NCBI GenBank assembly: GCA_964017825.1
Contig: CAXHMA010000001.1
Span: forward strand, 83,928 to 147,927
Reading direction: 5' to 3'
DNA length: 64,000 nt
Source of the DNA: an uncultured Alphaproteobacteria bacterium
GTDB lineage: Bacteria; Pseudomonadota; Alphaproteobacteria; RF32; CAG-239
The notes beneath the pieces were generated by a model. It made no database searches. It was given only the letters and a program-made list of their open reading frames with translations, and was not told the origin of the DNA. Both the position numbers and the translations under genes were made by a program. This document shows positions 5,307-42,480 of this stretch, one piece after another. How positions within the stretch are numbered: position 1 is the first letter of the stretch; the number at the start of each line of letters is the position of its first letter.

Positions 5307-8024
5307 ATGACAGAAAAAGTATGTTTGATAGACGGCTCGGGTTACATTTTCCGCGCCTTTTTCGCCAGCCCCAAAATGACGAACCCCGAAGGGCTGCCGG
5401 TCAATGCCGTATACGGTTTTTTGAATATGTTTTTAAGCCTGACCGCCAATATCAAATGCGATTACTGTCTGGTGCTGTTTGACGCCAAACGCCAAAACTT
5501 TCGCAATGAGTTTTTTGCCGACTATAAAGCCACCCGCCCCGAACTGCCGGAAGATTTGAAACCCCAGTTTGCACTGATACACGAAGTCGTGGAAGCCCTG
5601 AACCTGCATTGGCTCCAAATGGAAGGCTATGAAGCCGATGACCTGATTGCGACCTATGCCGACATGGCCTTAAAAGACGGCAAGGAAGTAACGATTGTCT
5701 CCGCTGACAAAGACTTAATGCAGCTTATCCGCCCCGGCGTCACCTTTTATGACAGCATGAAAAACAAATTTTTCACCCCCGAAGACGTCAAAGAAAAGTT
5801 CGGCGTTTATCCCGAACGCGTCACCGACGTACAGGCGCTGGCCGGCGACAGTACAGACAATATCCCCGGCGTCCCCGGCATCGGGCTTAAAACCGCCGCC
5901 GAGCTTGTCAACCAATTTGGCTCGCTGGAAGGCGTCTTGGAACACGCCGAAGAAATCAAGCAAAACAAACGCCGTGAACTGATTATGACGCACAAAGAAG
6001 ACGCGCTTGTTTCGCAAAAGCTCGTCACCTTAAAAGCTGACGTTCCCGTTGAGCTTCCCTTAAAAGACCTGCGCTGCATGGCGCCGCATCAGGAAGTCCT
6101 GAACGCGCTTCTTGACCGCCACGCTTTCAAAAGCCTGAAAAATAAAGCCGCCAACTGGCTTAAAAACAAATGTGCTTCTCTGCCCGAAGAACCTGTTACC
6201 GTGCCGCAGGAACTGACGCCGAACTATAAACTTATCCTGAGCGAAAAAGAACTGCCCGCCCTTTCTGCCGCCATTCAAGCCGAAAATATGTTTTCGTTCA
6301 AAGCGCATACCGTCAAAGACGAACTCATCGGACTGTCAATAAGCCTCCCGAACGCCCGCGCTTTTTACCTCCCTGTTGCTCAAACCGCACCGGCAGCAGA
6401 TTTATTTTCGGCGCCGACAGCCGCGGACGGCATAACCGCAAAACAGCTCAAACAAATTTTATCCCCTCTGTTCGCCAATTCTGCCGTTCTTAAAATATCG
6501 CTGGATATGAAAGAAAACGTCTCCCTGCTGCAAAAAGCATTTGAAATATCCGCCTATCCGTTCCCGTATGACGATGTTGCCATTATGTCATATGACCTGA
6601 ACAGTTCGTCCGTTGCTCACACTTTGCCTGCACTCGCTGCCGCATTTTTGCAAAAGAATCTTAAAACGGCCGAACCGGACTATAAAAAAGCCGATTTTAA
6701 AACCATGCCGCCGTCAGAAGCGTTAGCCTTTTTTGCCGAAGAGGCCGATTTCATCATGCGTCTGCACCGGCTCTTCCACCCGCAGCTCCTGCCCGAAAAG
6801 AAACTCTTTGTTTATGACGGTATTGACCGCCCGCTGTCTTCCGTTTTATACGATATGGAAAAGGCGGGCATTATGCTGGATACGAAAAAGCTGACCGAAC
6901 TCAACGCACTGTTTGACAAGGAGATGAACGCGCTTTCTTCCGAAATTTATAACATGGCGGAAACCGAATTTAACCTCAGTTCACCCAAGCAAATCGGCGA
7001 AATTTTATATGAAAAACTTGGCTTGAAAGGCAAAAAGCACCGCTCCGGCGCGCTTAATACCAGTGCCGAAGTGCTGGAAAAAATGGCCGAAACCCACGAG
7101 CTGCCGAAAAAGATTCTGGAATGGCGCAAATATCAGAAGCTCAAATCGACCTACACCACCGCCCTTCTGGAACTTATGGATAAAAACCACCGCGTGCATA
7201 CGACATACAGCCAGACCTCCGTCAACACCGGACGCCTGTCTTCCCTGAATCCGAACCTGCAAAACATCCCTATCCGCACCGAAATCGGGCGCGAACTGCG
7301 CAAATGTTTCATCGCCAAACCGGGGCATAAACTGATTGCCGCCGATTATTCGCAGGTGGAACTCCGCCTTTTGGCAACGATTGCCGATGTACCGTTTTTG
7401 CAGGAGGCGTTCAGAGAAAATGTTGACATTCACCGCAAAACCGCAGCCCAAGTCTTTGCTATTCCGTATGAAGAAGTTGACGCCGGCCACCGCCGCCGCG
7501 CCAAGGCAATCAACTTCGGCATTGTTTACGGCATTTCCGCATTCGGACTTTCCAAAGAAATTGACGCAACGCCCGCAGAAGCCCAGCGCTACATAGACGC
7601 TTATTTTGCCAACATGCCCGAAGTCAAAACCTATATGGAAGAAACTATTAATTTTGCCCGTCAAAACGGTTATGTCTTAACGCCTTTTAACCGCAAAATC
7701 ACTATTTTCGGCATTCAGGATAACAACAAACAGCTCGCCGCTTTTGCCGAACGGGCGGCGATTAACGCCCCGATACAAGGCGGCGCGGCAGACATAATCA
7801 AACTCGCGATGAACAAAATCCCCGCCAAATTAAAAGCAGCCGGACTGAAAGCGCAAATGCTCTTGCAGGTACATGACGAACTCGTGTTTGAAGCGCCCGA
7901 AGAAGAGGCCGAATCCGCCGCCGCACTGATAAAAAAAGAAATGGAAAACATCACCGCTATAGCACTCAAAACCCCGCTCATTGCCGAAACCGGCATCGGC
8001 GACAACTGGGACGAAGCGCACTAA
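5307..8024 (+). CDS. polA: DNA polymerase I.
   Basis: 905 aa; 5'-3' exonuclease N-domain, polymerase motifs DYSQVELR, RRxAKAINFGIVYG, QVHDELVFE. Confidence 0.95.
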   Translation: MTEKVCLIDGSGYIFRAFFASPKMTNPEGLPVNAVYGFLNMFLSLTANIKCDYCLVLFDAKRQNFRNEFFADYKATRPELPEDLKPQFALIHEVVEALNLHWLQMEGYEADDLIATYADMALKDGKEVTIVSADKDLMQLIRPGVTFYDSMKNKFFTPEDVKEKFGVYPERVTDVQALAGDSTDNIPGVPGIGLKTAAELVNQFGSLEGVLEHAEEIKQNKRRELIMTHKEDALVSQKLVTLKADVPVELPLKDLRCMAPHQEVLNALLDRHAFKSLKNKAANWLKNKCASLPEEPVTVPQELTPNYKLILSEKELPALSAAIQAENMFSFKAHTVKDELIGLSISLPNARAFYLPVAQTAPAADLFSAPTAADGITAKQLKQILSPLFANSAVLKISLDMKENVSLLQKAFEISAYPFPYDDVAIMSYDLNSSSVAHTLPALAAAFLQKNLKTAEPDYKKADFKTMPPSEALAFFAEEADFIMRLHRLFHPQLLPEKKLFVYDGIDRPLSSVLYDMEKAGIMLDTKKLTELNALFDKEMNALSSEIYNMAETEFNLSSPKQIGEILYEKLGLKGKKHRSGALNTSAEVLEKMAETHELPKKILEWRKYQKLKSTYTTALLELMDKNHRVHTTYSQTSVNTGRLSSLNPNLQNIPIRTEIGRELRKCFIAKPGHKLIAADYSQVELRLLATIADVPFLQEAFRENVDIHRKTAAQVFAIPYEEVDAGHRRRAKAINFGIVYGISAFGLSKEIDATPAEAQRYIDAYFANMPEVKTYMEETINFARQNGYVLTPFNRKITIFGIQDNNKQLAAFAERAAINAPIQGGAADIIKLAMNKIPAKLKAAGLKAQMLLQVHDELVFEAPEEEAESAAALIKKEMENITAIALKTPLIAETGIGDNWDEAH

Positions 8025-16427: not shown

Positions 16428-16442
16428 GCGCCGTTTTTTTAG

Positions 16443-16560
16443 AGGAGAGAAATTTTGTGAGTGAGCCTGAAATGTCCGCCAAGGGAGGGAAGTGTACATA
16501 AAAGTACATGACCCGACCGAAGTGCGGCTTCCATCCACAAATTAGTTCACAATAATTTGA
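16443..16560 (+). repeat. Rep1 copy A (dispersed ~110-bp stem-loop repeat, core GTGTACATAAAAGTACATG, tail TTCCATCCACAAATTAGTTCACAA).
   Basis: Shares head module GAGAAATTTTG[C/T]GAGTGAGCCTGAAAT, core and tail with five other copies in the window. Confidence 0.75.
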
Positions 16561-22295: not shown

Positions 22296-22505
22296 ATCGC
22301 CCCGTTACAGGAGCGATTTTGCCCACCCTTAAAGGAGAGAAATTTTGCGAGTGAGACCAATCAGACTCACTCATTAAAAATTAAAGGAGGGAAATTTTGC
22401 GAAATAATCGCAGATGTCCTGCCCTAAAGCGCAGCGTACATAGAGGTACGAGAGCATTTAGGGACAGGCCTCCATCTGCGAATTAGTTCACAACAATTTA
22501 CCCCT
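22296..22505 (+). repeat. Rep1 copy B (with duplicated head modules) abutting adhE stop codon.
   Basis: GGAGAGAAATTTTGCGAGTGAG, GGAGGGAAATTTTGCGAAATAATCGCAGATGTCCTG, core GCGTACATAGAGGTAC, tail CCTCCATCTGCGAATTAGTTCACAA. Confidence 0.75.
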
Positions 22506-25139
22506 TTAAAAGGCGGTGTCGGTATCCCCAACCCATGCCAACTCATACATCTTGCGGATTTCTTCAATCAGCGGATAACGCGGGTTGGAACCGGTGCACT
22601 GGTCGTCAAACGCCAATGTCGGCAGCGTTTCCATAGCTTTCTTGAAGTCTTCCTCGGTGTATTCGTTGCGGATGGCAAACCATTCTTTGATAGACCCCGG
22701 GATGCCGATTTTCGTCTTCAGCTCTTTAATTGCCTCTACTAACGCATTAACTTTGTCGTCATCGGTCTTGCCCTTAAAGCCCATCGCAGCCGCAAATTCG
22801 GCATAAGCCGCTTTGGCGTGCGGGAACTTATATTGCGGGAAAGCACACTGCTTCGTCGGCTTGTCGGTTGCATTATAACGGATAACCTGACAAATTAACA
22901 ATGCATTGGCTACACCGTGCGGAATGTTAAAGTGCGAACCGAGTTTGTGCGCCATCGAATGGCAAACGCCCAAGAAAGCATTCGCAAATGCCATACCGGC
23001 AAGCGTTGCCGCCGCGTGAACTTTTTCGCGGGCGTATGCGTCCGCCGTCGCATAAGACTGCGGCAGATAGTCAAATACCAGCTTGCCCGCTTCCAAAGAC
23101 AATCCGCGCGTATATTCGGTCGCCATGGAAGATACATAAGATTCAAGCGCGTGCGTCAGAATATCAATACCCGAAGCCGAGCAGAGACCTTTCGGCATGG
23201 TCAGCACCAAATCACTGTCTACAATAGCCATGGAAGGTGTCAGCGCATAGTCGGCAATCGCATATTTCACGCCCTCACCGTCGTCGGTGATAATGGAGAA
23301 CGGCGTTACCTCAGAACCCGTACCCGATGTCGTCGGAATAGCAACGAGCATAGCCTTCTCGCCAAGCGGCGGAAATTCAAAAATACGTTTGCGGATGTCC
23401 ATAAAGCGCATGGCCAAATCTTCAAACTTCAATTCCGGATGTTCATACATCAGCCACAGAATTTTGGACGCGTCAATCGGCGACCCACCGCCCAAGGCGA
23501 TAATCACATCGGGCTCAAACGAACGCAGCGTCTCAATTGCTTTGTTGACGGTCGTCAAGTCAGGATCGGGATGAACATCGGAGAAGACTTTATACTGCAC
23601 GCCGATTTGTTCCAGCACATCGGTCACCTTACGCGTCATACCCAGGTCAAACAACGGCTTGTCGGTTACGATAAACGCTTTCTTTTTGCCTTTGAGTTCT
23701 TTCAAAGCCACACCCAAAGAACCGGGTTTGAAATAGATTTTCGGAGGAACTCTGAACCATAACATATTTTCCTCGCGCTTAGCCACACTTTTAATATTCA
23801 TCAGATGTTTTACTCCTACATTTTCACTAACCGAGTTGCCGCCCCACGAACCGCAGCCCAAAGTCAGAGACGGTTCCAGACGGAAGTTGTAAATATCGCC
23901 GATAGCACCCTGCGATGCCGGACAGTTAATCATCACACGCCCCGTAATCATGAGGTGCCCGTAATATTTAATGCGGTCGTCATTCATCGGGTTGGTGTAA
24001 AGGACGGACGTATGTCCTCTGCCGCCATGCGATACCAGAGACTTCGCCAAATCAGCACCGCTCTTGAAATCATCGGCTTTATACAGCGCCAATACCGGAG
24101 ATAATTTTTCCGCCGAAAACGGTTCTTCCGCCCCGACTTTTGTGCATTCGGCAATCAAAACTTTTGTCTCAGCGGGAACGGAAATTTTTGCCATTTCGGC
24201 AATCCTGTGCGCCGGCTGTCCGACGATTGCGGCGTTCAAATGCCCGTCAATCATAATCACTTTGCCGAGTTTTTCTTTTTCTTTGGCATTCAGGATATAG
24301 GCGCCGCGTTTGATAAATTCTGCCTTAACCGCGTCATATACGTCTTTGACGGCCGTTACCGACTGCTCGGAAGCGCAAATCATGCCGTTATCAAAAGTTT
24401 TGGACATCAAAATGGAAGAAACCGCCATTTCAATATCCGCCGTTTCGTCAATCAGCGCCGGCGTATTGCCCGCGCCCACGCCCAAAGCAGGCTTACCTGA
24501 GCTGTATGCCGATTTCACCATCCCCGGACCACCGGTTGCCAAGATAATATCAACATCAGGATGTTGCATCAAATATTGCGTACGCAAAATAGACGGCTCG
24601 TCAATCCAGCCGATAATGTCTTCCGGTGCACCGGCCTTCACCGCTTCTTCCAAAATCAAACGCGCCGTTTCCACAGTGCATTTCTTGGCGCGCGGGTGCG
24701 GCGAAAAGATAATGCCGTTGCGGGTCTTCAACGCAATCAAAGACTTGAAAATCGCCGTGGATGTCGGATTCGTCGTCGGAATAACGCCGGCAATCACCCC
24801 CAGCGGTTCCGCAATCTTAATCAGCCCGTTGGCTTTGTCTTCTTCCAACACGCCGCAAGTCTTCACGCATTTGAATTTGTTATAGATATATTCAGACGCA
24901 AAATGGTTTTTAATCACCTTGTCTTCCACCACGCCCATGCCGGTTTCCTCAACCGCCATTTTCGCCAGCGGAATTCTGAGAGAGCTTAATTTCAAAGCCA
25001 CTCTGCGAAAGATATGGTCAACCTGCTCTTCCGAATATTCCGCAAACTTTTTTTGCGCCGCGGCCACTTTTTTAACCAGCGCGTCAATATATGCCTTTTC
25101 CTGTTCCTCGGTTACCTGAACCTGATTTTCTTTTGCCAT
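22506..25139 (-). CDS. adhE: Bifunctional acetaldehyde-CoA/alcohol dehydrogenase.
   Basis: 877 aa; N-terminal ALDH domain (catalytic Cys region MICASEQS), C-terminal Fe-ADH domain (GGGSPxD, His-rich metal site). Confidence 0.95.
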   Translation of the reverse strand: MAKENQVQVTEEQEKAYIDALVKKVAAAQKKFAEYSEEQVDHIFRRVALKLSSLRIPLAKMAVEETGMGVVEDKVIKNHFASEYIYNKFKCVKTCGVLEEDKANGLIKIAEPLGVIAGVIPTTNPTSTAIFKSLIALKTRNGIIFSPHPRAKKCTVETARLILEEAVKAGAPEDIIGWIDEPSILRTQYLMQHPDVDIILATGGPGMVKSAYSSGKPALGVGAGNTPALIDETADIEMAVSSILMSKTFDNGMICASEQSVTAVKDVYDAVKAEFIKRGAYILNAKEKEKLGKVIMIDGHLNAAIVGQPAHRIAEMAKISVPAETKVLIAECTKVGAEEPFSAEKLSPVLALYKADDFKSGADLAKSLVSHGGRGHTSVLYTNPMNDDRIKYYGHLMITGRVMINCPASQGAIGDIYNFRLEPSLTLGCGSWGGNSVSENVGVKHLMNIKSVAKREENMLWFRVPPKIYFKPGSLGVALKELKGKKKAFIVTDKPLFDLGMTRKVTDVLEQIGVQYKVFSDVHPDPDLTTVNKAIETLRSFEPDVIIALGGGSPIDASKILWLMYEHPELKFEDLAMRFMDIRKRIFEFPPLGEKAMLVAIPTTSGTGSEVTPFSIITDDGEGVKYAIADYALTPSMAIVDSDLVLTMPKGLCSASGIDILTHALESYVSSMATEYTRGLSLEAGKLVFDYLPQSYATADAYAREKVHAAATLAGMAFANAFLGVCHSMAHKLGSHFNIPHGVANALLICQVIRYNATDKPTKQCAFPQYKFPHAKAAYAEFAAAMGFKGKTDDDKVNALVEAIKELKTKIGIPGSIKEWFAIRNEYTEEDFKKAMETLPTLAFDDQCTGSNPRYPLIEEIRKMYELAWVGDTDTAF

Positions 25140-25254: not shown

Positions 25255-25329
25255 TTATATTTTAAAATCAAGGGCATGGAAAATTGCATCCCGGCCAATC
25301 AACAAAACGATAAGGCATAATTTTTTCAT
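25255..25329 (-). pseudogene. Remnant 5' cassette (24 aa: MKKLCLIVLLIGRD...) of the secreted-paralog family, ATGA-overlapping the stop of 25326..26087.
   Basis: Nucleotide string AAGGCATAATTTTTTCAT identical to the starts of three upstream paralogs. Confidence 0.4.
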
Positions 25330-26087
25330 GGTTCCCTGTTTTCTCCGTATTTGGCCGCCGCTTCGTTTAAAAGGGTGTCTGCGGCATGTTCCAGCAACAC
25401 ATTGGTTTTGAATTTGACTGTATATTCTCTAAGCTGATATTCCGGATTCAGATATGAATAATACTTTTTTGTTTCATCTGCCATTCTGACGAAAGCTTCT
25501 GTTACCTCTGCTGCTTTATCAGGGTAAAATTGCGTTGCGGCCGTATCAATAATTTCATAAACACACCGCTCGTAACCATCGGCATATGCTCTTTCCGCCA
25601 CATGAATTGCCTTGATGTTGCCGTCATCATCTTTCAGTTCCGAACGATAGGGGACAAAATCGCCGCACTGTTCCAATTTTTGCCGCAGTGCATTAACTGC
25701 TTCTATTCCATATGGATGTTCGGCATCTAAATATTCTTTGACTTCGGTTCGCGAAAAATCAGCACATTGAACAATGTAACCAAGATTTCGGTATATTTCA
25801 GCCTTGTCAGTCGGTATGTAAATATAAGCGATATCCGTCTCCAAGCCGTTAATATATATGAGCCTTTCCTGTATTTTATCATCGGCAATCGCCTTGACCG
25901 AAGCCGGCGCTATTTTACGCGCTTTGTTATCGCCCTGACACGTCGGACAATAATGTATCACCTCTTTGGCATTCTGTAACAGTTTGACGGCGTTTTCAGC
26001 AATGTCTGCCGTATTGTAAACGCAGATATCGGCATGCGCCGTTATCGCAGCCAAACACAGCAAAACAATAAGGCATAATTTTTTCAT
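25326..26087 (-). CDS. Secreted Cys-containing hypothetical protein (253 aa) sharing only its signal peptide with neighbours.
   Basis: Signal peptide MKKLCLIVLLCLAAITAHA; ATG start. Confidence 0.6.
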   Translation of the reverse strand: MKKLCLIVLLCLAAITAHADICVYNTADIAENAVKLLQNAKEVIHYCPTCQGDNKARKIAPASVKAIADDKIQERLIYINGLETDIAYIYIPTDKAEIYRNLGYIVQCADFSRTEVKEYLDAEHPYGIEAVNALRQKLEQCGDFVPYRSELKDDDGNIKAIHVAERAYADGYERCVYEIIDTAATQFYPDKAAEVTEAFVRMADETKKYYSYLNPEYQLREYTVKFKTNVLLEHAADTLLNEAAAKYGENREP

Positions 26088-26090
26088 GAT

Positions 26091-27014
26091 TTACTCCTCA
26101 TTTAAATCACATTTGAGGCGGTTTTGTTTTTCAAAACAATCTTTATGTACGAGATATAAATCTTTTTTATTGAAATAGTCTATATAAAGAGCATAAAAAT
26201 CATTCGGGTTAAAAGTTATTTGATGAATCAATTTGTTACGGCGGTCTAAATTAAATTCAGTATAAGGCTTTCCGTCTTTGCCGATAATCACAGAACCGTC
26301 AGCTTTAAATTCAAACGAAGCCCTGCCGCATGTAAGCTTAGGATTATCTTTCAGCCGATAATAATTCTCCGGCAATGTGCTTCCTTCCTCATATGAATGC
26401 AGTTCAATAAATCCTTTCCCTAAATCCTCATAGCAGTTTAGTTCAACGACGTTAAACTCGGGAAAGACAACCTTATCTTCATCAGCCAATATCAGTTCGT
26501 AACTGGTTTCCTCCGGTATATCCGGCATTTTATAATCATAACGGCAGTAGCTTCGGTCAGCCCCTTCATAAGCGCATCCGCGCACAAAAATTTTGCCGTC
26601 TTTTATGCCGACGGAATCATATATGCCGTCAGCTTCTCGACCGAACGGGAATAAATTGCCTAAGTATTTTTTCCCTGCATACAGCTGTACGGCCAATTTA
26701 TAGCTATATGGATATGACTGCATAAACACTGGTGTAAATTTCATTTTATATTCAACACCGTCAATAACGCAGCTTTCTTCGCGCGGTATTGGTTTTGTTT
26801 GAGTTGTTGTGACGTTATATTCGTATAATCCGTGTTTTTGTGCTCTCTGTGCCCAATCCTTATCTTCCGGTTCGGCAAAAAAATCTTTCATATCCGTACG
26901 GAATTCTTTTACATTTGGCAGACAGCTTGTTTTGTATGTATATTCATAATAACTTGTCGCATGTGCCGTTATCGCAACCAGACACAGCAATATTAAAAGG
27001 CATAATTTTTTCAT
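26091..27014 (-). CDS. Secreted Cys-rich hypothetical protein, tandem paralog A (307 aa).
   Basis: ~70% aa identity to 27014..27949; signal peptide MKKLCLLILLCLVAITAHA; start ATG overlaps upstream stop (TGATG). Confidence 0.65.
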   Translation of the reverse strand: MKKLCLLILLCLVAITAHATSYYEYTYKTSCLPNVKEFRTDMKDFFAEPEDKDWAQRAQKHGLYEYNVTTTQTKPIPREESCVIDGVEYKMKFTPVFMQSYPYSYKLAVQLYAGKKYLGNLFPFGREADGIYDSVGIKDGKIFVRGCAYEGADRSYCRYDYKMPDIPEETSYELILADEDKVVFPEFNVVELNCYEDLGKGFIELHSYEEGSTLPENYYRLKDNPKLTCGRASFEFKADGSVIIGKDGKPYTEFNLDRRNKLIHQITFNPNDFYALYIDYFNKKDLYLVHKDCFEKQNRLKCDLNEE

Positions 27015-27949
27015 CAATTTATCTCCTTAAACATATTGCAGCCGGAGCATTCTTCCTTTTCAGAGCAAAATCTGCTGTTCGAATACAGTTCCTTTTTATC
27101 AAAATATTTTATATAAAAACCCGCAAGCAAACTCGCATCAAAAGCTATTTGATAAATCTGTTTGTTACAGAGTGCCGGATTAAAGTCAGCATACGTTTTT
27201 TCATCTTTGCTGACGATGACCGAACCGTCAGCTTTAAATTTTATGGAAGCCCTGCCGCATGTAAGCTTAGGATTATCTTTCAATCGATAATAATTTTCCG
27301 GCAACTCGCTTTCTTCCTTATAAGAACGCAGCTCAACAAATCCTTTTTCCAAGTCTTCATAGCAGTTCAATTCAACGATGTTAAATTCCGGAAAGACAAC
27401 CTTGTTTTTATCAGCCAATATCAATTCATAACTGGTTTCTTCAGGCATATCCAACTCTTTATAATCATAAAGGCAATAACTTATATTGGTTGCCTCGTAA
27501 ATACAACCTCGCACAAAAATTTTGCCGTCTTTTATGCCGACGGAATCGTAGCCGTCATCATAATCCGCACCAAACGGAAAAAGGATGCCCCTATATTTTT
27601 TTCCGGCGTAAAGCTGCACAGCCGTCTCATGACGGCCATAATATTCCCGAACAAGTATAGGAATAAATTTCATTCTATATTCAACACCGTCTATGGTGCA
27701 GCTTTCTTCCCTCGGCAGCGGCTTTTCTTCATATGTATCCACATTGAGCCTGTATAATCCGTGTTTTTCAGCTTTTTGTAACCAATCTGCATCATCCCGA
27801 ACATCAAAAAAAACTTTTCTGTCTGCACGGAATTCTTTTACATTCGGCAAACAGCTTGTTTTATATGTATATTCATAATAACTTGTCGCATGTGCCTTTT
27901 TGGCAAACGCAGCCAAACACAGCAATATTAAAAGGCATAATTTTTTCAT
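27014..27949 (-). CDS. Secreted Cys-rich hypothetical protein, tandem paralog B (311 aa).
   Basis: Paralog of 26091..27014; same signal-peptide cassette. Confidence 0.65.
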   Translation of the reverse strand: MKKLCLLILLCLAAFAKKAHATSYYEYTYKTSCLPNVKEFRADRKVFFDVRDDADWLQKAEKHGLYRLNVDTYEEKPLPREESCTIDGVEYRMKFIPILVREYYGRHETAVQLYAGKKYRGILFPFGADYDDGYDSVGIKDGKIFVRGCIYEATNISYCLYDYKELDMPEETSYELILADKNKVVFPEFNIVELNCYEDLEKGFVELRSYKEESELPENYYRLKDNPKLTCGRASIKFKADGSVIVSKDEKTYADFNPALCNKQIYQIAFDASLLAGFYIKYFDKKELYSNSRFCSEKEECSGCNMFKEIN

Positions 27950-27952
27950 GAT

Positions 27953-28687
27953 TTACTCTTGTTCTAAATTAAAAACTTTTGCCGTTTCGTTCATGTACCA
28001 TGCAACCACTTTTTTAATTTCAGTATAACGGAATGCGGCAATATAATCCTCAACGACGGTGCCGTTGTCATAATTTTCCGTCGGGGTATATATATCCCGC
28101 AGCAGAGTTTCATATGCAGTCAAATAATTATCAAAATTTTTTTTATATTTATCTGCGTTATCGAGATGGCAGTTTTTAAACAATGAAGACAGTGTTTGCA
28201 AATAACATTCTTCCGCTTCTGTAAGATTACTGTTTTGTACATTGCCGTATAGTTCTTCGCATTGCTGATATCGTTTCTGCGTCTGCATAAATTTATCACG
28301 CATGGAAATATATATTTTATCAGAACCTATTTCTTTCAAAAGACGATTATCATCCGTTTTGCAACCGATTATCAGTCCTAAATTTTGATATGTTCCGGAT
28401 ATTTCAGAATAAACAAAGAAATCCGTTGCCGCATAACTGTTGTCTTTTATGCTGAAACGTCCGAACTCCAAACTGTTTTCATCTGTTGTGAAATCAATAT
28501 CGGCAAAAGAAATCTCCTGCGGTTTAGTGTTTTCAAACAGCAGAATTTCTTTTGCGGATGATAAAACATTTTCTGCTTTTTCCATTTCCTCAACGCTGAG
28601 GGCATCGCATCCGCAATAATCAGCCCGAGCCATGTATATAGGAAACAGCATTAAAACAGAGATAAAGATTAAAATTTTATTTTTCAT
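27953..28687 (-). CDS. Secreted Cys-containing hypothetical protein (244 aa).
   Basis: Signal peptide MKNKILIFISVLMLFPIYMARA; operonic with neighbours. Confidence 0.55.
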   Translation of the reverse strand: MKNKILIFISVLMLFPIYMARADYCGCDALSVEEMEKAENVLSSAKEILLFENTKPQEISFADIDFTTDENSLEFGRFSIKDNSYAATDFFVYSEISGTYQNLGLIIGCKTDDNRLLKEIGSDKIYISMRDKFMQTQKRYQQCEELYGNVQNSNLTEAEECYLQTLSSLFKNCHLDNADKYKKNFDNYLTAYETLLRDIYTPTENYDNGTVVEDYIAAFRYTEIKKVVAWYMNETAKVFNLEQE

Positions 28688-28776
28688 TTTCGCGCCCCGG
28701 ATAAATATTCCTCTTTAAGTTTTCCGAACATTTGTTCAAATTTCTCAGCACCATAATATTGCTGTTTTACCCTGCT

Positions 28777-29406
28777 TTATAAAGCAAAATCTGTGCAGTT
28801 TTTAAAATCTTCCATTGTTCCCAATGCGGCGTTTTCATAACCGTTATATGTGTAACAGTGGATTTTGTCTTTTGTTTCACGGGTACAATTTAAAGGCAAA
28901 ACTCCTTGCCGTTTAGCGCCATTCTTGTCAAAATATTCCGCAATGCAGCGGCAATCATGACACTTTTGCAAGTCTATCCGGCTGTATATTTCTGAACCTT
29001 TACATGATTTGGATATATAAACATTGTTACTTGCCGAGAAAATAAGTTCGTCATTACCGCCAATGTAACATGACGCTTTATCAAAATTATCTTTATTATT
29101 TTCCTCGCAAAAGAAAGAAACGGTTTCCTGCGCGTGGTTGGCAGTATCCTTAACAGTGCCGGAACAGCCGTGTGAGCCGCAATCCGCAAAACGAAAAGGC
29201 TCTGCCTTGTCAATCCACAGAGGGACTTCAATTTGATATGTGTCTTTTGACCCCCGATATATATATTCAACACTATCCTCATCTTCGGCAAGTAACTCAC
29301 CTTTGCTGACGGCAAATTCACCGCACGGCCAATCTTGCGGAAGAGCATTTACTGTATAACAAAACAATATACTACATACAAAAATCATATAACCTTTTTT
29401 CAACAT
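28777..29406 (-). CDS. Secreted Cys-rich small protein (209 aa), candidate cognate immunity-like partner of upstream SLT protein.
   Basis: Signal peptide; 14 Cys; 5' end overlaps 3' end of SLT-domain gene by 35 nt. Confidence 0.55.
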   Translation of the reverse strand: MLKKGYMIFVCSILFCYTVNALPQDWPCGEFAVSKGELLAEDEDSVEYIYRGSKDTYQIEVPLWIDKAEPFRFADCGSHGCSGTVKDTANHAQETVSFFCEENNKDNFDKASCYIGGNDELIFSASNNVYISKSCKGSEIYSRIDLQKCHDCRCIAEYFDKNGAKRQGVLPLNCTRETKDKIHCYTYNGYENAALGTMEDFKNCTDFAL

Positions 29407-30523
29407 TGTATAAATGTCCTCTTAAATTTTTCTCTATTTTATCATAGGGTAAACGGTATACTCCATTTTTATCTTTTTCAAGTGATTTAAAATAGGTACG
29501 GACAAAACCAAGCCCTTCGCGATGTCCGGCAGCCAGTAATCCTGACAGAGTAATATCAAAATCAACCTCTTGTTTGTTCAGAACAGCCTTTACATGCATT
29601 GTCGTTTGTGGCAAAAGGTTCATTCGTTTCAAGCGAATATAATTTAAATTCATCATATCTTTTATCGCTTTTTCTTGGACTTCGTGTGCATTATAAAAAT
29701 CTTGTGCGCTGTTTATACCGTCTTTTCCTAACCAATTTCCCTGCTTGTCAACATATCCCAAATCAATAAGAATCCCCTTACGCATTTGATATTTTCCCAG
29801 TGCCCCTATTCCTCCTCCTTCCGAATTAAAGGCATTATAATTGTTACTTGATTCTTTTTGAGCTAATAAGTTATAAAAATCATTACTCAAATAGTTGTCA
29901 ACGAATCTTAAAGATTCTTTTTGCTCTCCTTTTATCTCCATTGAAGCCAGCTTTTGTTTGGTTTCCGCGATGTGTTTTTGTATGGCTTTGTCCGTTTCAA
30001 AAAGACGGCGTTGTTCTTTTTCCTGCGCTGCGCGTTCTTTCCATTCCTTTTCCAAAGATATGCGGCCTTCTTCACTCATTCGGTGCCACACTTCGGGGGT
30101 GAAGAGCGGCGGGAAGGGAGAGGATGTCAAGCCTTTTTCTTCTTCCGATATTTTTATAAGTTCCGCGTCATCATTCTGATTTGAAAACGGATCAGGCTGT
30201 CCGGAAACAGCACGCAGGTCATTTGTTTGCAGCTGTTGTTTTCGTTCTGCCATATCAGCTCGAAACGCCTCAGTTGTGTTGCGTTGCATGAGAGATTCCT
30301 GCCTTTCAAGCTCACGGGCTGTCGCACGTTCTTTCAATACCTCACCGGCGTAACAGCGTACTGAGCAGTAATCCTGATATTCCTCGTCGGGAATTTGGTA
30401 TTCAATGTCCCAAGGGTTTTCGCCGAAACGGTCGTAATATTCATTGAGTTTTTTCTTGGCGATGGTTTTCGGATTTGGGGTCCCGAATAACGTTTTTTCC
30501 AATTCATCAGCAAAGCTGTGCAT
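29372..30523 (-). CDS. Signal-peptide-less protein with charged coiled-coil-like N-region and C-terminal lytic transglycosylase (SLT family 1-like) domain.
   Basis: GAGGAG RBS before ATG 30523 (the track ORF starts at an upstream TTG); C-terminal QKESSNNYNAFNSEGGGIGALGKYQM ... IKDMMNLNYIRL ... LLAAGHREG follows ES / GLMQ / AYL / AYNAG motif order. Confidence 0.55.
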   Translation of the reverse strand: MHSFADELEKTLFGTPNPKTIAKKKLNEYYDRFGENPWDIEYQIPDEEYQDYCSVRCYAGEVLKERATARELERQESLMQRNTTEAFRADMAERKQQLQTNDLRAVSGQPDPFSNQNDDAELIKISEEEKGLTSSPFPPLFTPEVWHRMSEEGRISLEKEWKERAAQEKEQRRLFETDKAIQKHIAETKQKLASMEIKGEQKESLRFVDNYLSNDFYNLLAQKESSNNYNAFNSEGGGIGALGKYQMRKGILIDLGYVDKQGNWLGKDGINSAQDFYNAHEVQEKAIKDMMNLNYIRLKRMNLLPQTTMHVKAVLNKQEVDFDITLSGLLAAGHREGLGFVRTYFKSLEKDKNGVYRLPYDKIEKNLRGHLYNVEKRLYDFCM

Positions 30524-30669
30524 ATCGTTCTCCTCTATAAAAAAAGACTTCAAACCGCACCGTCCGAAGTCCTGAATTAAAAATCGTATATTATAATAAA
30601 TATACTTTTGGGAGAATGTCAATACTTTCAGAGACAGAGATGTAAATATTTTTTATGGAAAAAATATGG

Positions 30670-30893
30670 CAGAAATTTTGCGAAGCAGCCGCGGGAGCCT
30701 TACCCGCGTTACGCCCCGTTACAGATGGGAAATTTTGCGAAATAACCGCGGGAACCCTGCCCCATTACAGGCGGAAAATTTTGGTAGTGAGCCTGAAATA
30801 TCCGCCAAAGGGCAGGAGTGTACATAAAGGTACATGACTGCCCTGCAGAGCGGCTTCCATTTCAGAACTCAATACCAAAATTTACCCCTGTAA
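30670..30893 (+). repeat. Rep1 copy C (three head modules + core) abutting pyk stop codon.
   Basis: GAAATTTTGCGAAGCAGCCGCGGG, GGGAAATTTTGCGAAATAACCGCGGG, GTGAGCCTGAAATATCCGCC, core GTGTACATAAAGGTACATG, tail GGCTTCCATTTC...AATTTACCCCTGTAA. Confidence 0.75.
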
Positions 30894-32315
30894 TTAAGCT
30901 TTGACGATGTGAAGAACGTTGGTAATCCCCGCCCTTCCGAACGGATAGCCTGCCGTAACGACAATATGCTCACCCGGTTGCGCAAGGCCGGAGACACGCG
31001 CAAACCCGCGCGACACCGTTTCAATGTTATCAAAACTTTCAAAAACTTTCTTGTCAATAAAGGTCTTCACACCCCAAACAAGGTTCAGACGCCGCGCGAT
31101 TTCCTCGCTCGGGTTGATAGACATAACCGGCAAAACGGGACGTTCCTGCGCCATGAGCAATGTTGTTGCGCCGGAAACCGAAAACGTCGCAATGCAGGCA
31201 ACTTTGTTCATCGTGCGCACAACCGTACTTGCCGCATGTGTGATGGCGTGCGATTCATCGCTGTAACATGCCGGCTCGCAGAAACGGTTAACATTTTCAA
31301 AATAACGCGGATCAGCTTCCACATTTTCAATCACGCCGCGCATGGTCCTGACCGTTTCAACAGGATAATTGCCTGCAGCCGTTTCCGCCGAAAGCATAAC
31401 GACATCGCAGCCGTCATAAACCGCCGTCGCCACGTCCGAAACCTCGGCTCTTGTCGGTATCGGCGCCGAAATCATCGATTCGAGCATCTGCGTCGCCACA
31501 ATCACCGGCTTGCCGTACAGACGGCATTTCGCTTCAATGCGTTTTTGCAAAACCGGCACCGTCACAATCGGACATTCCACGCCCAAATCGCCGCGCGCCA
31601 CCATAACCATATCCGAAGCTTTAACAATCGCGTCCAGCTCGTCCAAAACCTGCGGCTTTTCAAGCTTGGAAATAATCCACGCTTTTTTACCGATAATCTT
31701 ACGCGCTTCCCTGATGTCCGAAGCCCGCTGCACAAACGACAGGCAGACGCAGTCCACACCGAGCTTTAAGGCAAAATCCAAATCGCTCAAATCTTTCGGC
31801 GTCAGCGGTGAAATATTCAGCGAAGAGTTCGGCAGATTCACGCCCTTATGTCCGGAAATAATACCGCCGACCTCGACTTCGGTCTCCGCAGAATCTTTAT
31901 TGCATTTTAAAACCTTTAAGATAATGTTGCCGTCATTGACCAACAGCGTGTCGCCGGCTTTTAAAGCTTCAAAAATCTCTTTATGAGGCAGGGTAACACG
32001 AGTCTCATCACCGAGCTCATCCTTCATATCCAACGTAAACTTCTGCCCTTTTTGCAGCAGGACTTTTCCCTCTTTAAACGTACCGATTCTCAGTTTCGGC
32101 CCCTGCAAATCCGCCACAATTGTCGTATGCGCGTTTTTCTTTTTTGCGATTCTGCGCACCGTATCATATGTTTCTTTGTGTTCTTCCTGCGTACCGTGGC
32201 TGAAATTCAGACGAAACCCGTCCACGCCTGCTTCAATAAGGGCTTCAATTTTTTCTTCGCTGTTTGAAGCGGGTCCCAATGTTGCTAAAATCTTTGTACG
32301 CGTACTGATCGGCAT
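30894..32315 (-). CDS. pyk: Pyruvate kinase.
   Basis: 473 aa; PK barrel and C-domain motifs (MVARGDLGVE, TQMLESM). Confidence 0.95.
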   Translation of the reverse strand: MPISTRTKILATLGPASNSEEKIEALIEAGVDGFRLNFSHGTQEEHKETYDTVRRIAKKKNAHTTIVADLQGPKLRIGTFKEGKVLLQKGQKFTLDMKDELGDETRVTLPHKEIFEALKAGDTLLVNDGNIILKVLKCNKDSAETEVEVGGIISGHKGVNLPNSSLNISPLTPKDLSDLDFALKLGVDCVCLSFVQRASDIREARKIIGKKAWIISKLEKPQVLDELDAIVKASDMVMVARGDLGVECPIVTVPVLQKRIEAKCRLYGKPVIVATQMLESMISAPIPTRAEVSDVATAVYDGCDVVMLSAETAAGNYPVETVRTMRGVIENVEADPRYFENVNRFCEPACYSDESHAITHAASTVVRTMNKVACIATFSVSGATTLLMAQERPVLPVMSINPSEEIARRLNLVWGVKTFIDKKVFESFDNIETVSRGFARVSGLAQPGEHIVVTAGYPFGRAGITNVLHIVKA

Positions 32316-32487
32316 AATATTTCTCCATTAGTTACATTCCGTATTTCGCTTTCTTACATATATAACATAAATGTTTAATAACTTATTATTCTTTATGTTC
32401 TCCACAATTATTTCTTGTCAAAAAAAAATATCTTTGCTATGGTGTCAGCCGATATGATTTTGTAATACTAAAAATGGGAGAGACGAC

Positions 32488-32736
32488 ATGTCAGAAAATG
32501 AAGTTGGCGGCATTGACAGCACCAGATTAAATTCGCTTATTGAACGTATTGAACGCCTGGAAGAAGAAAAAAAGGGAATTTCTTCCGATATCCGCGATAT
32601 CTATGCCGAAGCCAAAGGCGTCGGTTTTGACGTTAAAATCATGAAAACAATCATCAAATTAAGAAAGATGAATCAGGCTGACCGCGATGAGCAGGAATTT
32701 TTGCTTGAAACATACCGCAAAGCGCTGAATGTTTAA
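32488..32736 (+). CDS. gapR: GapR-like nucleoid-associated protein (DUF2312/UPF0335), alphaproteobacteria-specific family.
   Basis: LNSLIERIERLEEEKKGISSDIRDIYAEAKGVGFDVKIMKTIIKLRK matches the family consensus. Confidence 0.75.
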   Translation: MSENEVGGIDSTRLNSLIERIERLEEEKKGISSDIRDIYAEAKGVGFDVKIMKTIIKLRKMNQADRDEQEFLLETYRKALNV

Positions 32737-32749
32737 AGTAGACTTTAAG

Positions 32750-32790
32750 TCAAAGAAGCTCTGTCGAGCAAAACAGAGCTTCTTTTTTAT
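32750..32790 (+). terminator. Intrinsic terminator after gapR.
   Basis: GAAGCTCTGTCGAGCAAAACAGAGCTTC + TTTTTT. Confidence 0.65.
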
Positions 32791-32834
32791 CTCTGTTACA
32801 TCAGCCTTTCTGCGTTCATAATTTTATATAAAAT

Positions 32835-32940
32835 GCGGAATTTTGCTTTAATATCGCGGGAGCCCTGCCGGGGAGGAGAGTACATTGAAGTACATGGCCC
32901 GACCGACGACAGGCCCCTCCCGCGAATTAATTTACAAAAT
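32835..32940 (+). repeat. Rep1 copy D, ends 8 nt before stop of permease gene.
   Basis: GGAATTTTGCTTTAATATCGCGGGAGCC, core GAGTACATTGAAGTACATG, tail CCCTCCCGCGAATTAATTTACAAAAT. Confidence 0.7.
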
Positions 32941-32948
32941 GACACATT

Positions 32949-34421
32949 TTATACCGCAACCAACCCTCTGGCCATGGCATAAATCGCAAACAGCGCGGCA
33001 ACCACCAATACACCGGCCGCAAAGCGTTCGCCTGCGGTAAATGCCGGTTCATGCGGCGCGTTTTGATGCCGCGCGTGAATAAAGACCGGAATACCGATGG
33101 CCATAAATATCAACGCCATCAACAAATAGTTAAGACCTGCGGCATATATCAGCCATAAGGCATACAACGAACCTAATACGGCCGAAAGCAACGCAGCGCT
33201 GCGGCGGATGTAGAAATCAGCCGGATATTCATGGTCTTCGCATAATTTCCACAAATACATCGCACTCGCGAAATACGCCGGCAGCACCATAACGCTCGTG
33301 ATGCTGAGCATCGTGTTCCACGCATTGCCCGAAAAATAAACCATAAGCATAAACAGCTGCATCAAAAAGCTTGTCACATAAAGCGAAACTGACGGTGCCT
33401 GTGCGGCATTTTCTTTGGTAAATTCTTTCGGAAACGTGCCGTTTTCAGCCGCTGCCTGCGGAATCTGCGCCGTAACCATGGTCCACGCCAGCCAGCTCGT
33501 CAAAACCGAAACCAGCAAACCGATATTCATGATATATGACCCCCATTTGCCGATAACCGCTTCCAGCACGGCCGCCGTGGAAGGATTAGGAAGTTTGGCC
33601 AATTGTTCCTGACTCATCAGACCATATGGCAAAACAGAAAGCAATACATACACCAGCAAACAACCCGAAAAACCGAGAAGCGTAGCCGTACCGACAGCCC
33701 GCGGATTTTTGGCATGTTTTGACATCACCACAGCGCCTTCAATACCGATAAATGCCCACAACGTCACAAGCATTGTGCCTTCAATCTGCTTTGTCAGGCT
33801 GCCGAGATTGGTTTCCCGCTCACCCCAAAAGTCAAATGAAAATTTATCCGAATTGAAGAACACCATTGTCACCACAATAAAGAACAACAGCGGCACAATT
33901 TTTGCTACCGTACCGATAAGGTTTACAATCGTTGCCTGTTTAATCCCTTTCAATACCAGCGCGTTAAATCCCCAGATAAGGATAGAACCGCCGATAATGG
34001 AATAAAGATTATTCCCTCCGACAAAATAAGGCGGAAAGAAATAGTTCAGCGCATCCATGGTAATAACCGCATAGCCGACATTGCCGCAGATTTGGCACAG
34101 CCAATATGACCAGCCGATTGTAAAGCCGACATATCGTCCGAACCCTGCCCGGCTGTACATATAAATACCGGCAGTCAAATCCGGCTTAACCACAGACAAA
34201 ATGCGGAAAGTATTTGCCAAAAAATAAACGCCGATACCGGTAATCAGCCACGCCAATAAGACTGCTCCGACCGAAGCGCCGGCAGCCATATTTTGCGGCA
34301 GACTGTATATGCCGCCGCCGATCATGGAACTGACCACAACGCCGGCCAAAGCCAAAACGCCGAGCTTTCCTTTATCCGGCTGTGTTGCCGGCGTTGTTTT
34401 AATGTTTTCTTGTTTTGCCAT
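32949..34421 (-). CDS. APC-superfamily amino acid/polyamine antiporter (candidate arginine:agmatine exchanger by context).
   Basis: 490 aa, 12-13 TM, APC-type glycine-rich TM1; adjacent to arginine decarboxylase. Confidence 0.7.
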   Translation of the reverse strand: MAKQENIKTTPATQPDKGKLGVLALAGVVVSSMIGGGIYSLPQNMAAGASVGAVLLAWLITGIGVYFLANTFRILSVVKPDLTAGIYMYSRAGFGRYVGFTIGWSYWLCQICGNVGYAVITMDALNYFFPPYFVGGNNLYSIIGGSILIWGFNALVLKGIKQATIVNLIGTVAKIVPLLFFIVVTMVFFNSDKFSFDFWGERETNLGSLTKQIEGTMLVTLWAFIGIEGAVVMSKHAKNPRAVGTATLLGFSGCLLVYVLLSVLPYGLMSQEQLAKLPNPSTAAVLEAVIGKWGSYIMNIGLLVSVLTSWLAWTMVTAQIPQAAAENGTFPKEFTKENAAQAPSVSLYVTSFLMQLFMLMVYFSGNAWNTMLSITSVMVLPAYFASAMYLWKLCEDHEYPADFYIRRSAALLSAVLGSLYALWLIYAAGLNYLLMALIFMAIGIPVFIHARHQNAPHEPAFTAGERFAAGVLVVAALFAIYAMARGLVAV

Positions 34422-34473
34422 ATTTTTATATCCTCTAACTAAAATTAAACCACTGACTTAGTTAAAAGACGGC

Positions 34474-35055
34474 CTAAACTTTTGCAGCCGGAGCATGTTC
34501 AAAGTTCAAAAAGCCGAGGCAGGTCAAACTGTAACCGAATTGCTGTTCAATATTCAGATAGTTATGGAACAGCTGAAATTCACTGTGTTTTTCCACACCG
34601 CGGATTTCCAATTCGTGGTTAAGAGATTTGTTAAGCCACATTTCGGCATGCCCTTTGGCAATTTCATCATCAATCTGAGTATCAAAAAACTCAACATACT
34701 CGGCAGCCCATCCGCCGATAAGTTCGCCGTTTTTATCTTTACCCCAGCAGATTCCGAGACCTGTCGCAATCGCTTTATGTTCGTCGCGGCTGGCACCGTG
34801 TCCGGCCATAATAACTTCCAATACCGCACCGTGTTTGAACTGGTTGACAACTTTGTCAACAGGAACGATGTTGCCGAATATCTCTTTCGGCAGAACGGAT
34901 GTGTAAGGAACAACGTTAAAGTTTTCAATTTTAGCTTGCAATAATGCAGAGTCATAACAAAAAGTCTCAAAAGGCTGCGGCGGAATACCTTCGTTGGCCT
35001 GGCCGACACCGCCGGTAATAAATGCTAATGTAGGAAATCTTACACCTTCTGTCAT
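34474..35055 (-). CDS. pdaD: Pyruvoyl-dependent arginine decarboxylase (PdaD/AaxB family).
   Basis: 193 aa; conserved block [25 protein letters not shown] resembling the self-cleavage region of archaeal/chlamydial PdaD. Confidence 0.55.
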
Positions 35056-35131
35056 ATTCTTCTCCTTATAAAAAATTAATTAAGCAGGAGAATACATAAC
35101 CTTTAATTTAATTTTTTAAACGCCCCAAAAA

Positions 35132-35968
35132 TCAAACTAGCCTTTTCGCTATATCAAGATACTGCACCGGCGATAAATTTTCCGCCCGCAATGTCGGCTC
35201 AATCCGTAAAGCTTCCAGATGCTCCGCAATCTGCGGAATGCCTTTCAGACTCTGCCTGATCATCTTGCGCCGCTGCCCGAAAGCCAGCCCGGTCAACATC
35301 TGCACTTTCTCCAAAATATCTTTATGCAAAGCCTCTTTTTTCGGCACAAACAATAAAACCGAAGACCAGATTTTCGGCGCCGGAACAAAACACGTCGGCG
35401 GCAGATCAAACAGACGGACAACTTCGCATTGCAGCTGCGAAATAACCGAAAGGCGCCCGTAATCCTTACAACCCGTATCCGCCAAAATCCGGTCGGCGAC
35501 TTCTTTCTGAAACATCAGCGTCAGACTTTTAAAACGCGAAATTTGTTCCAGCCAGCCGGTCAGCAAAACGACGGAAATATTATACGGCAGATTGCTGACA
35601 ATATGAAAAGCGCCGTCCACAGCGGCTTTGCCCGCCCAGTCAAATTTCAGTGCATCGCCGTTCACGATTTCCAACTGCGGATAACCTTCTTTAATTTCTT
35701 TCAAAATCTCAATGCAGCGCTCATCCATTTCTATGACGGTCATCTTCTCGGGCGATTGCCTGAGTACCGCCTGCGTCAGCCCGCCGGGCCCCGGGCCGAC
35801 TTCCGCGACACATTCACCGGCATAAGACGGAAGTTTCTGCTCGGTAAGAGACAAACGGATAATCTTGTCGGTGATGTTTCCGTCCAGCAAAAAATTCTGC
35901 CCTAATGACTTTTTCGCCAACAGCCCGTATTTATCAACAAACTCTTTTGTGCTTAAAATGTCCGCCAT
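35132..35968 (-). CDS. rsmA: 16S rRNA (adenine1518/1519-N6)-dimethyltransferase.
   Basis: KSLGQNFLLD, VGPGPGGLT SAM motif, NLPYNIS. Confidence 0.9.
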   Translation of the reverse strand: MADILSTKEFVDKYGLLAKKSLGQNFLLDGNITDKIIRLSLTEQKLPSYAGECVAEVGPGPGGLTQAVLRQSPEKMTVIEMDERCIEILKEIKEGYPQLEIVNGDALKFDWAGKAAVDGAFHIVSNLPYNISVVLLTGWLEQISRFKSLTLMFQKEVADRILADTGCKDYGRLSVISQLQCEVVRLFDLPPTCFVPAPKIWSSVLLFVPKKEALHKDILEKVQMLTGLAFGQRRKMIRQSLKGIPQIAEHLEALRIEPTLRAENLSPVQYLDIAKRLV

Positions 35969-41652: not shown

Positions 41653-41754
41653 CTGATGAGGCGGAGCTTGTCAACTCCGCCCTTTGATTTTTACTCTGCC
41701 ACATCTCTCACTCTGACGGATTGTTAGGCGAGAAAGTGCTGTGCTGAAAGCAAA

Positions 41755-41940
41755 AGTCCCCTCCCAAACCGCAGCGTACATTTTAAAGGCAACAAGTTGC
41801 CCGTGAGCCGGCCGAAGTCAGGCCTCGTATTGTGCTGCAAATTGCGAAATAGCCGCGGATGTCCCCCGAGGAGCACGAATGTACATAGAAGTACATGACG
41901 CGACGAAGAGGGGCTTCCATCCGCAAGCTAGTTCACAATT
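41755..41940 (+). repeat. Rep1 copy E (1.5 units) abutting grpE stop codon.
   Basis: CCGCAGCGTACAT partial unit then AAATTGCGAAATAGCCGCGGATGTCC, core GAATGTACATAGAAGTACATG, tail GGCTTCCATCCGCAAGCTAGTTCACAA. Confidence 0.75.
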
Positions 41941-42480
41941 TTATCGTGCAACAACGACCATTGCTTCGCGAAGAATGCGGTCATGTATGGTATACCCCGC
42001 CTGTAATTCGGCTAAAATGGTACCGGGTTCGGCTTTTTTGTCTTCCACTTCTTGGACGACGCGTTCAAAGTTGGGGTCAAATATCTCTCCGATATGATTG
42101 AAACGTTTGATGCCGAATTTTTCAAACACTTTGGTTAATTCGTTTTGTGTCAGCTCCACGCCTTTGAGCAGGTCGGCGCACGCCTGTTCGTTGCCGGACA
42201 TGGCGGTAACCGCGCGCTCCAGATTGTCGGCGACACCTAGTAGCTCTTTGGCAAAAGATGAAATGGCAAATTTAATTGTTTTTTCGGTTTCCTGCTGCAC
42301 GCGTTTTTTCATGTTATCCATTTCGGCATACAGGCGGAGATAGTCGTCTCTAAGCTTATTATATTCTTCTATGCTTTTGGTTTCTTCCGCAGCGTCCTCT
42401 TCGGCTTCAGCGCAAACTTCTTCCTCTGCCGGCAGTTCGTCCTCGGGATTATTTTTCAACTCTTCGTTTTCAGTGCTCAT
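41941..42480 (-). CDS. grpE: Nucleotide exchange factor GrpE.
   Basis: Acidic N-tail, LRLYAEMDNMKKR, C-terminal beta domain. Confidence 0.9.
   Translation of the reverse strand: MSTENEELKNNPEDELPAEEEVCAEAEEDAAEETKSIEEYNKLRDDYLRLYAEMDNMKKRVQQETEKTIKFAISSFAKELLGVADNLERAVTAMSGNEQACADLLKGVELTQNELTKVFEKFGIKRFNHIGEIFDPNFERVVQEVEDKKAEPGTILAELQAGYTIHDRILREAMVVVAR

Follow-up and report, generated by a model that had tools for sequence, protein, structure and literature searches.

Two adjacent minus-strand open reading frames (ORFs) in the window considered here, a stretch of 64,000 nucleotides (nt) from an uncultured alphaproteobacterium (contig CAXHMA010000001.1 of assembly GCA_964017825.1, positions 83,928 to 147,927), encode proteins of 193 and 490 amino acids (aa) and, with a probability of roughly 0.8, make up a module for exchanging arginine and agmatine whose orthologue is the chlamydial pair aaxB-aaxC. 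The first would be a pyruvoyl-dependent arginine decarboxylase and the second an antiporter of the APC superfamily, the counterparts being the C. pneumoniae aaxABC exchange system (Giles & Graham 2007; Smith & Graham 2008, as summarised in PMC2720952). The ORF listing bears out the coordinates and common strand given for the two genes by a first-pass annotation made from the letters of the DNA. What the analysis itself establishes is homology, conservation of catalytic residues, linkage, selection and native composition.

The predicted decarboxylase and antiporter

Over residues 8-147 the 193-aa protein, which has an ATG start, matches the Pfam family PF01862 (PvlArgDC) at 90.4 bits (cut-off 22.7), and in alignments that run end to end it has 75% identity and 87% positives with the AaxB of C. 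pneumoniae (194 aa) and 73% identity with that of C. felis. The evidence for AaxB consists of protein database entries that bear this name, among them those of C. felis, C. pneumoniae (AAD19169.1, part of an aaxA-aaxB-aaxC locus) and C. trachomatis. Residues D35, N47, T52-S53, G114-G115 and E119 are conserved in the window protein, and in an alignment of 28 diverse homologues N47, Y51 and S53 are invariant, with E119 nearly so. AaxB cleaves itself at Ser53, and Gly115 is required for that cleavage (PMC2720952). The PdaD/AaxB-like self-processing region recognised in the first-pass annotation, where residues 32-56 were quoted as a 25-residue peptide, is confirmed by the Pfam match, the T52-S53 pair and the identity to C. 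pneumoniae AaxB. Public annotation already names the decarboxylase, but not its tie to AaxC or to the aax system.

Plain phmmer comparison of the decarboxylase with the PDB gives no match and a profile is needed; that built from the 28 homologues matches the structures of M. jannaschii PdaD (PDB 1MT1, 1N13, 1N2M, 2QQD) at E 2e-12, with N47, S53 and E119 of the window protein aligned to N47, S53 and E109. With an AlphaFold model (predicted local distance difference test score, pLDDT, 76.8), the significant Foldseek matches in the PDB are only PdaD (E 1e-7 to 3e-6, TM score 0.52-0.71) and then pyruvoyl histidine decarboxylase. The two proteins thus share fold, catalytic residues and Pfam family, whereas identity is only ~20%, the window protein has a 7-residue insertion, GIPPQPF, and a longer C-terminal half, and PdaD is biosynthetic and without a linked antiporter. 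S-adenosylmethionine decarboxylase, the family named in the first-pass annotation as what the protein might instead prove to be, has no match among the Pfam and NCBIfam results. A separate observation concerns more distant PvlArgDC relatives, 33-52% identical (P0132, P0135, P0139, P0140, P0146, P0150, P0163 and P0228; P0136, P0137 and P0142), with N-terminal extensions resembling signal peptides or those of lipoproteins, or fused into proteins of 390-480 aa; they may be exported pyruvoyl decarboxylases.

The 490-aa protein matches Pfam AA_permease_2 (193.8 bits) and passes the NCBIfam model TIGR00905, basic amino acid/polyamine antiporter (566 bits, cut-off 409). Over 469-485 aa it has 60% identity with the AaxC of C. 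pneumoniae (485 aa) and 61% with that of C. felis, and since gene order and strand also match those in Chlamydia, the directly adjacent APC antiporter and aaxB-aaxC arrangement claimed in the first-pass annotation stand. It falls well below the AdiC equivalog NF007929 (165 against 574 bits) and, at 461 bits, below the cut-off of the histidine-histamine antiporter type-2 (HdcP-2) model. The score pattern of chlamydial AaxC is the same, i.e. TIGR00905 is passed, with ~500 bits on the ArcD model, ~450 on HdcP-2 and ~167 on AdiC, all below their cut-offs. The closest solved structure is that of E. coli AdiC (E 4e-36), and the window residues aligned to AdiC Y93, N101, W202, I205, E208, W293 and Y365, which are residues of binding and gating, are identical, as they are in AaxC. 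From the 75% and 60% identities to characterised proteins, arginine decarboxylation and arginine:agmatine transport would be the activities of the pair.

Linkage of the two genes was assessed in a scan of GTDB in which each species was represented by one genome, with counts taken over the best 80 of 550 genomes, each at least 86% identical. An AaxB-type protein is encoded in all 550 of these species-level genomes, contrary to the first-pass description of the system as rare outside archaea and Chlamydiae. In 79 of the 80 loci the antiporter gene lies 3' of that for the decarboxylase and runs in the same direction, and the contig of the remaining one ends before the position is reached.

Comparison with the C. 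pneumoniae proteins shows agreement in the order aaxB then aaxC, in strand, in Thr52-Ser53, Gly115 and the catalytic Glu, and in the NCBIfam profiles. In contrast, rsmA rather than an aaxA porin gene is upstream in the window, the aaxB-aaxC spacer is 52 nt instead of the ~10 nt in Chlamydia, Trp128 of AaxB corresponds to Gln127 of the window protein, and the bearer of the pair is a gut alphaproteobacterium that lives outside cells, where C. pneumoniae is an obligate intracellular pathogen. The E. coli AdiA/AdiC system (AR3) similarly combines a decarboxylase with an Arg/Agm APC antiporter, most of whose binding and gating residues are identical to those here, but AdiA is a large pyridoxal phosphate (PLP) enzyme unrelated to AaxB. 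ArcD, the arginine:ornithine antiporter of the arginine deiminase pathway, is alike in its TIGR00905 membership and in ~46% identity (for Azospirillum brasilense ArcD), but it is outside the AaxC clade, and near the window transporter there are no arcA, arcB or arcC genes.

Several points weigh against the identification. It rests on sequence comparison, with acid resistance, energy and agmatine supply as alternative roles. The decarboxylase falls below the NCBIfam equivalogs TIGR00286 and NF009064 (34.3 and 34.5 bits, where 106.95 and 207 are called for); characterised C. pneumoniae AaxB likewise fails both, with 29.9 and 29.6 bits, which implies that these archaeal-type PdaD equivalogs leave out the AaxB subfamily. 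The structure model is only moderately confident, with residues 29-52 poorly modelled. On the ArcD equivalog TIGR03810 the transporter does almost equally well (503 bits, cut-off 591), and AdiC S357 is replaced by Met and the GSG motif by GGG, exactly as in AaxC. AaxA stimulates the system in C. pneumoniae, and no aaxA-like porin is present in the window, where tblastn with chlamydial AaxA and with an OprB porin from related loci yielded no homologue. The nearby porin for which the first-pass annotation proposed to look is thus lacking in the window, but seven relatives have one beside the pair.

In these seven of the 80 related loci an OprB-family porin gene is directly upstream of aaxB and, by contrast with Chlamydia, divergently transcribed. 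It matches Pfam PF04966 at 62 bits, shares 37% identity with the AaxA of C. felis (E 6e-76), and has as its only NCBIfam match 'porin AaxA', at 307 bits with a cut-off of 600. Because the porin adjoins aaxB, those seven gut alphaproteobacterial species have the full aaxA/B/C gene set. OprB matches had appeared in 14 loci, but in seven the match is to an over-extended ORF overlapping aaxB on the opposite strand, and only the other seven are real.

The proposed exchange cycle and alternative functions

In the cycle proposed, whose chlamydial precedent, the AAX system, is described in PMC2720952, L-arginine would enter through AaxC as agmatine leaves, and the AaxB proenzyme, by self-cleavage between Thr52 and Ser53, would give its pyruvoyl cofactor and decarboxylate arginine to agmatine and CO2, one cytoplasmic proton being consumed. 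Because decarboxylation would remove a proton and the exchange of Arg(+1) for Agm(+2) would export net positive charge, the cycle should raise internal pH and build proton-motive force, in the service of acid resistance and/or energy conservation, with agmatine released into the gut. Such a physiological role for the pair is a deduction from the kinship of the two proteins.

Arginine to agmatine as the reaction of the AaxB subfamily is supported by the genes that homologues adjoin. In Cetobacterium sp. (locus L086, 5001-10585) the gene of an enzyme 75% identical to AaxB is followed by those for agmatine deiminase and the CN-hydrolase N-carbamoylputrescine amidase (aguA, aguB), without an antiporter, and a gene for a pyruvoyl histidine decarboxylase is also near. 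On a Lichenicola cladoniae plasmid (NZ_CP053710.1) an AaxB-type enzyme, 71.5% identical to the window protein, is likewise found with aguA and aguB, in a cluster that also encodes a 47%-identical APC antiporter, an outer-membrane barrel protein and a PLP Orn/Lys/Arg decarboxylase. These same two arrangements are what could be cited for a biosynthetic function, in which the decarboxylase supplies agmatine for intracellular putrescine and the permease does no more than take up arginine or export a polyamine, and archaeal PdaD is itself an enzyme of the polyamine pathway. For the window pair this is nevertheless unlikely. No homologue of aguA or aguB is present in the window and none recurs beside the pair in the 80 related loci, where the antiporter is the only constant, and this strict linkage with lack of nearby agu genes weakens the biosynthetic account, as does the fact that the transporter is closest to a characterised exchanger, AaxC.

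An equal fold acting on another substrate, e.g. a histidine/histamine or ornithine/putrescine decarboxylation-antiport pair, could be argued from the HdcP-2 and ArcD scores of the transporter and from the ease with which substrate specificity shifts in the APC family, but it is very improbable given that both scores are below cut-off with AaxC showing the same pattern, that the enzyme is 75% identical to an arginine-specific one with D35 and E119 kept, and that all genomic partners of the AaxB-type subfamily are agmatine enzymes.

Constraint, descent and the tie to Chlamydia

All 80 of the closest genomes are metagenome-assembled genomes (MAGs) from gut, rumen or faeces, the hosts being mouse, human, ruminants, rabbit and chicken, and nearly all are labelled Alphaproteobacteria, probably of the GTDB order RF32 to judge from names such as CAG:495 and 'Azospirillum sp. 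51_20'. The host-associated lifestyle suggested in the first-pass annotation fits, since every one of these genomes is a gut or rumen MAG. RF32 genomes are reduced (~1.6 Mb), with losses of amino-acid biosynthesis (PMC8199421). The exact window proteins are also present in NCBI assembly GCA_965648045.1. Four of the loci (L042, L043, L048 and L056) carry as title Bacteroidaceae, [Ruminococcus] gnavus or Eubacteriales, and have flanks in common with loci labelled Alphaproteobacteria, L042 and L043 with L047, L056 with L066 and L048 with L046; their titles are likely bin-labelling errors.

Among the 80 loci at least 10 arrangements of flanking genes occur, with the lptD-surA-rsmA context of the window in ~26, and the pair itself changes little. 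Between species in which RsmA, SurA and LptD show 48-81% identity (54-79% for LptD alone), AaxB shows 86-99%. At the nucleotide level the identity of aaxB to the closest genome is only 86%, and that of the pair 85-86%. The proportion of synonymous differences (pS) of aaxB and aaxC from the three closest genomes is 0.52-0.65, within or just below the 0.57-0.80 of flanking genes, and the ratio of nonsynonymous to synonymous change (dN/dS) is ~0.005-0.02 for aaxB and 0.03-0.06 for aaxC, in comparison with 0.08-0.16 for rsmA, surA and lptD. The comparison of base composition with the flanks that the first-pass annotation had proposed reveals nothing foreign: the two genes have a GC content of 0.445 and 0.488 (window mean 0.461), a third-position value (GC3) of 0.435 and 0.549 (mean 0.507) and codon-usage z of +0.9 and -0.8, and in GC, GC3 and codon-usage likelihood both are within ~1 standard deviation of the 49 window genes. 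From the linkage, the saturated synonymous sites, the low dN/dS and the native composition it follows that the pair is native, old and vertically inherited, under very strong purifying selection, and no recent insertion.

This runs counter to the first-pass view of a horizontally acquired island marked by a copy of a repeat, Rep1, at the 3' end of the transporter gene. In favor of recent acquisition might be counted the occurrence of AaxB-type genes in several phyla and on one plasmid, the variation of flanking genes among related genomes, and the inference that the ancestor of Chlamydiaceae gained aaxABC via horizontal transfer (PMC2720952). It is a highly improbable account of the window pair, however, with both genes native in composition, with pS to the closest genome (0.52-0.62) like that of the flanks at so modest a nucleotide identity, with the pair kept in 79 of 80 relatives, with the gut alphaproteobacterial AaxC clade monophyletic in 100% of bootstraps, and with the repeat dispersed in at least six intergenic copies in the window and present in relatives. 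No unrelated genome was seen with an almost identical nucleotide copy, neither direct repeats nor integrase genes were seen at the flanks, and the pair was not seen to be missing from sister species.

The trees, for which neighbour-joining with a simple distance was applied to a biased sample, show orthology and leave out the direction of transfer. In that of AaxB the gut and chlamydial sequences are set apart from PvlArgDC proteins of greater distance as one clade, with a bootstrap of 100%, and within it the placement of the chlamydial sequences as sister to, or nested in, the gut clade has bootstraps of 48% and 29%. That of AaxC, rooted with A. brasilense ArcD and two further APC proteins from plasmids, has the gut alphaproteobacterial sequences as sister to a chlamydial-type clade (79%), the joint clade being found in 97%. 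The phylogeny of both proteins, a check that the first-pass annotation had put forward, accordingly places both with their chlamydial namesakes. Chlamydial loci have the order OprB porin (aaxA), PvlArgDC (aaxB), APC (aaxC). The same order as in C. felis and C. pneumoniae, aroC-aroB-aroDE-OprB-aaxB-aaxC-DAO-x-ldh-pgi, is present in a locus (L085, protein P0293) with the NCBI name 'MAG: Victivallaceae bacterium'; probably the genome is chlamydial or the bin has been wrongly labelled.

Since it supplies the sister clade of chlamydial aaxBC, and some of its members keep an AaxA-like porin, the uncultured gut alphaproteobacterial lineage, or a close relative, could have been the partner in the transfer of aaxABC to the Chlamydiaceae ancestor. 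The extreme constraint, for its part, suggests that aaxBC is more than a stress device and serves these fermenters with reduced genomes as a central pathway of energy conservation. The two propositions are offered tentatively, being rather unlikely.

Surroundings of the pair and wider significance

The neighbours are housekeeping genes, with lptF/G, lptD, surA and rsmA upstream and gapR and that for pyruvate kinase downstream; together with the labels of the closest genomes, the products GapR, RsmA, SurA, LptD and LptF/G justify the alphaproteobacterial context assigned in the first-pass annotation. Features of the locus are collected in Table 1. A Shine-Dalgarno sequence precedes each gene of the pair. 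The candidate promoter listed was not flagged by an automated promoter scan, but relatives with other upstream genes have TTGAAA or TTTAAA, ~16-17 nt, and a TAT-rich hexamer at ~40-80 nt upstream of aaxB. That such promoter-like boxes recur despite unrelated upstream genes suggests that aaxBC may be an autonomous two-gene operon. In an Rfam scan of 32300-35300 the only match is at chance level (E 0.16), and so no known riboswitch or leader is present there.

Table 1. Features of the aaxBC-type locus, with the porin gene of related loci for comparison (positions are those of the window, except for the last row)
Feature	Position	Strand	Basis
Predicted aaxB-type pyruvoyl-dependent arginine decarboxylase proenzyme, 193 aa	34474..35055	-	Pfam PF01862, AaxB identity, PdaD profile and fold
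Codons of Thr52-Ser53, where self-cleavage is predicted; the pyruvoyl group would arise from Ser53	34897..34902	-	Alignment, PdaD, AaxB
Predicted aaxC-type arginine:agmatine antiporter, APC superfamily, 490 aa	32949..34421	-	AaxC identity, NCBIfam scores, tree
Putative sigma-70-like promoter, TTTAAA-16 nt-TATGTA, in 76-nt spacer after rsmA	35093..35120	-	Inferred only
Copy of dispersed intergenic hairpin repeat ('Rep1'), 3' of aaxC	32830..32940	.	Repeat families; fold -43 kcal/mol, z -4.1
Palindromic terminator-like hairpin between convergent aaxC and gapR	32752..32785	.	13-bp stem then T-run
OprB porin of related loci (L031, L036, L055, L058, L062, L067, L069)	~5550-6900	-	Pfam, NCBIfam, C. 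felis AaxA

The repeat is ~100 nt long and hairpin-forming, in the manner of repetitive extragenic palindromic (REP) sequences or miniature inverted-repeat transposable elements (MITEs), with copies near 16440-16560, 22320-22500, 30670-30880, 32830-32940, 41730-41945 and 62626-62741 (families D2, D3, D6, D11, D12 and D20). A related copy is downstream of aaxC in one relative (L002, 9251-9334). Searching the window with a 28-mer of Rep1, exactly or with 3 mismatches, retrieves only the copy of origin, the family being too divergent. As the repeat is dispersed in the window and present in relatives, it carries no information particular to the aaxBC module. Directly 3' of aaxC in 16 relatives, and absent from the window, is a conserved ORF of ~165-178 aa on the same strand without a Pfam match (L016, L017, L020, L021, L025-L027, L029, L032, L033, L039-L041, L063, L068 and L076).

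Elsewhere in the window, six consecutive minus-strand ORFs at 25326-30622 (253, 308, 311, 244, 209 and 416 aa) have no Pfam match at E<=0.01 and a low GC content of 0.35-0.43, with z down to -2.8 relative to the window's genes. Repeated segments are shared by those at 25326-26087, 26091-27017 and 27014-27949, the latter two being tandem paralogues with 72-87% nucleotide identity over these segments. It is this 25.3-30.6 kb block, and not aaxBC, that looks compositionally foreign. At 22506-25139 on the minus strand is a gene for an AdhE-type bifunctional aldehyde/alcohol dehydrogenase of 877 aa, consistent with a fermentative anaerobic lifestyle.

The module belongs to a kind of system already known, in a lineage that has been little studied, and reveals no new mechanism. 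A literature search found nothing linking RF32 or Alphaproteobacteria to agmatine or to pyruvoyl arginine decarboxylase, and no description of the system in gut Alphaproteobacteria. An exchange studied only in Chlamydiaceae would now extend to a widespread uncultured lineage of gut and rumen Alphaproteobacteria, where aaxBC is among the most conserved loci examined. It points to a route, open to test, by which microbes may produce agmatine in the gut, and if the proposal of an energy pathway is true, these organisms would be notable gut agmatine producers. In practical terms it provides a non-chlamydial, and possibly more tractable, source of AaxB and AaxC, as well as outgroup sampling for revisiting the origin of aaxABC in Chlamydia. 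Of greater interest are how the pair is tied in evolution to aaxABC of Chlamydia and why it is so extremely conserved.

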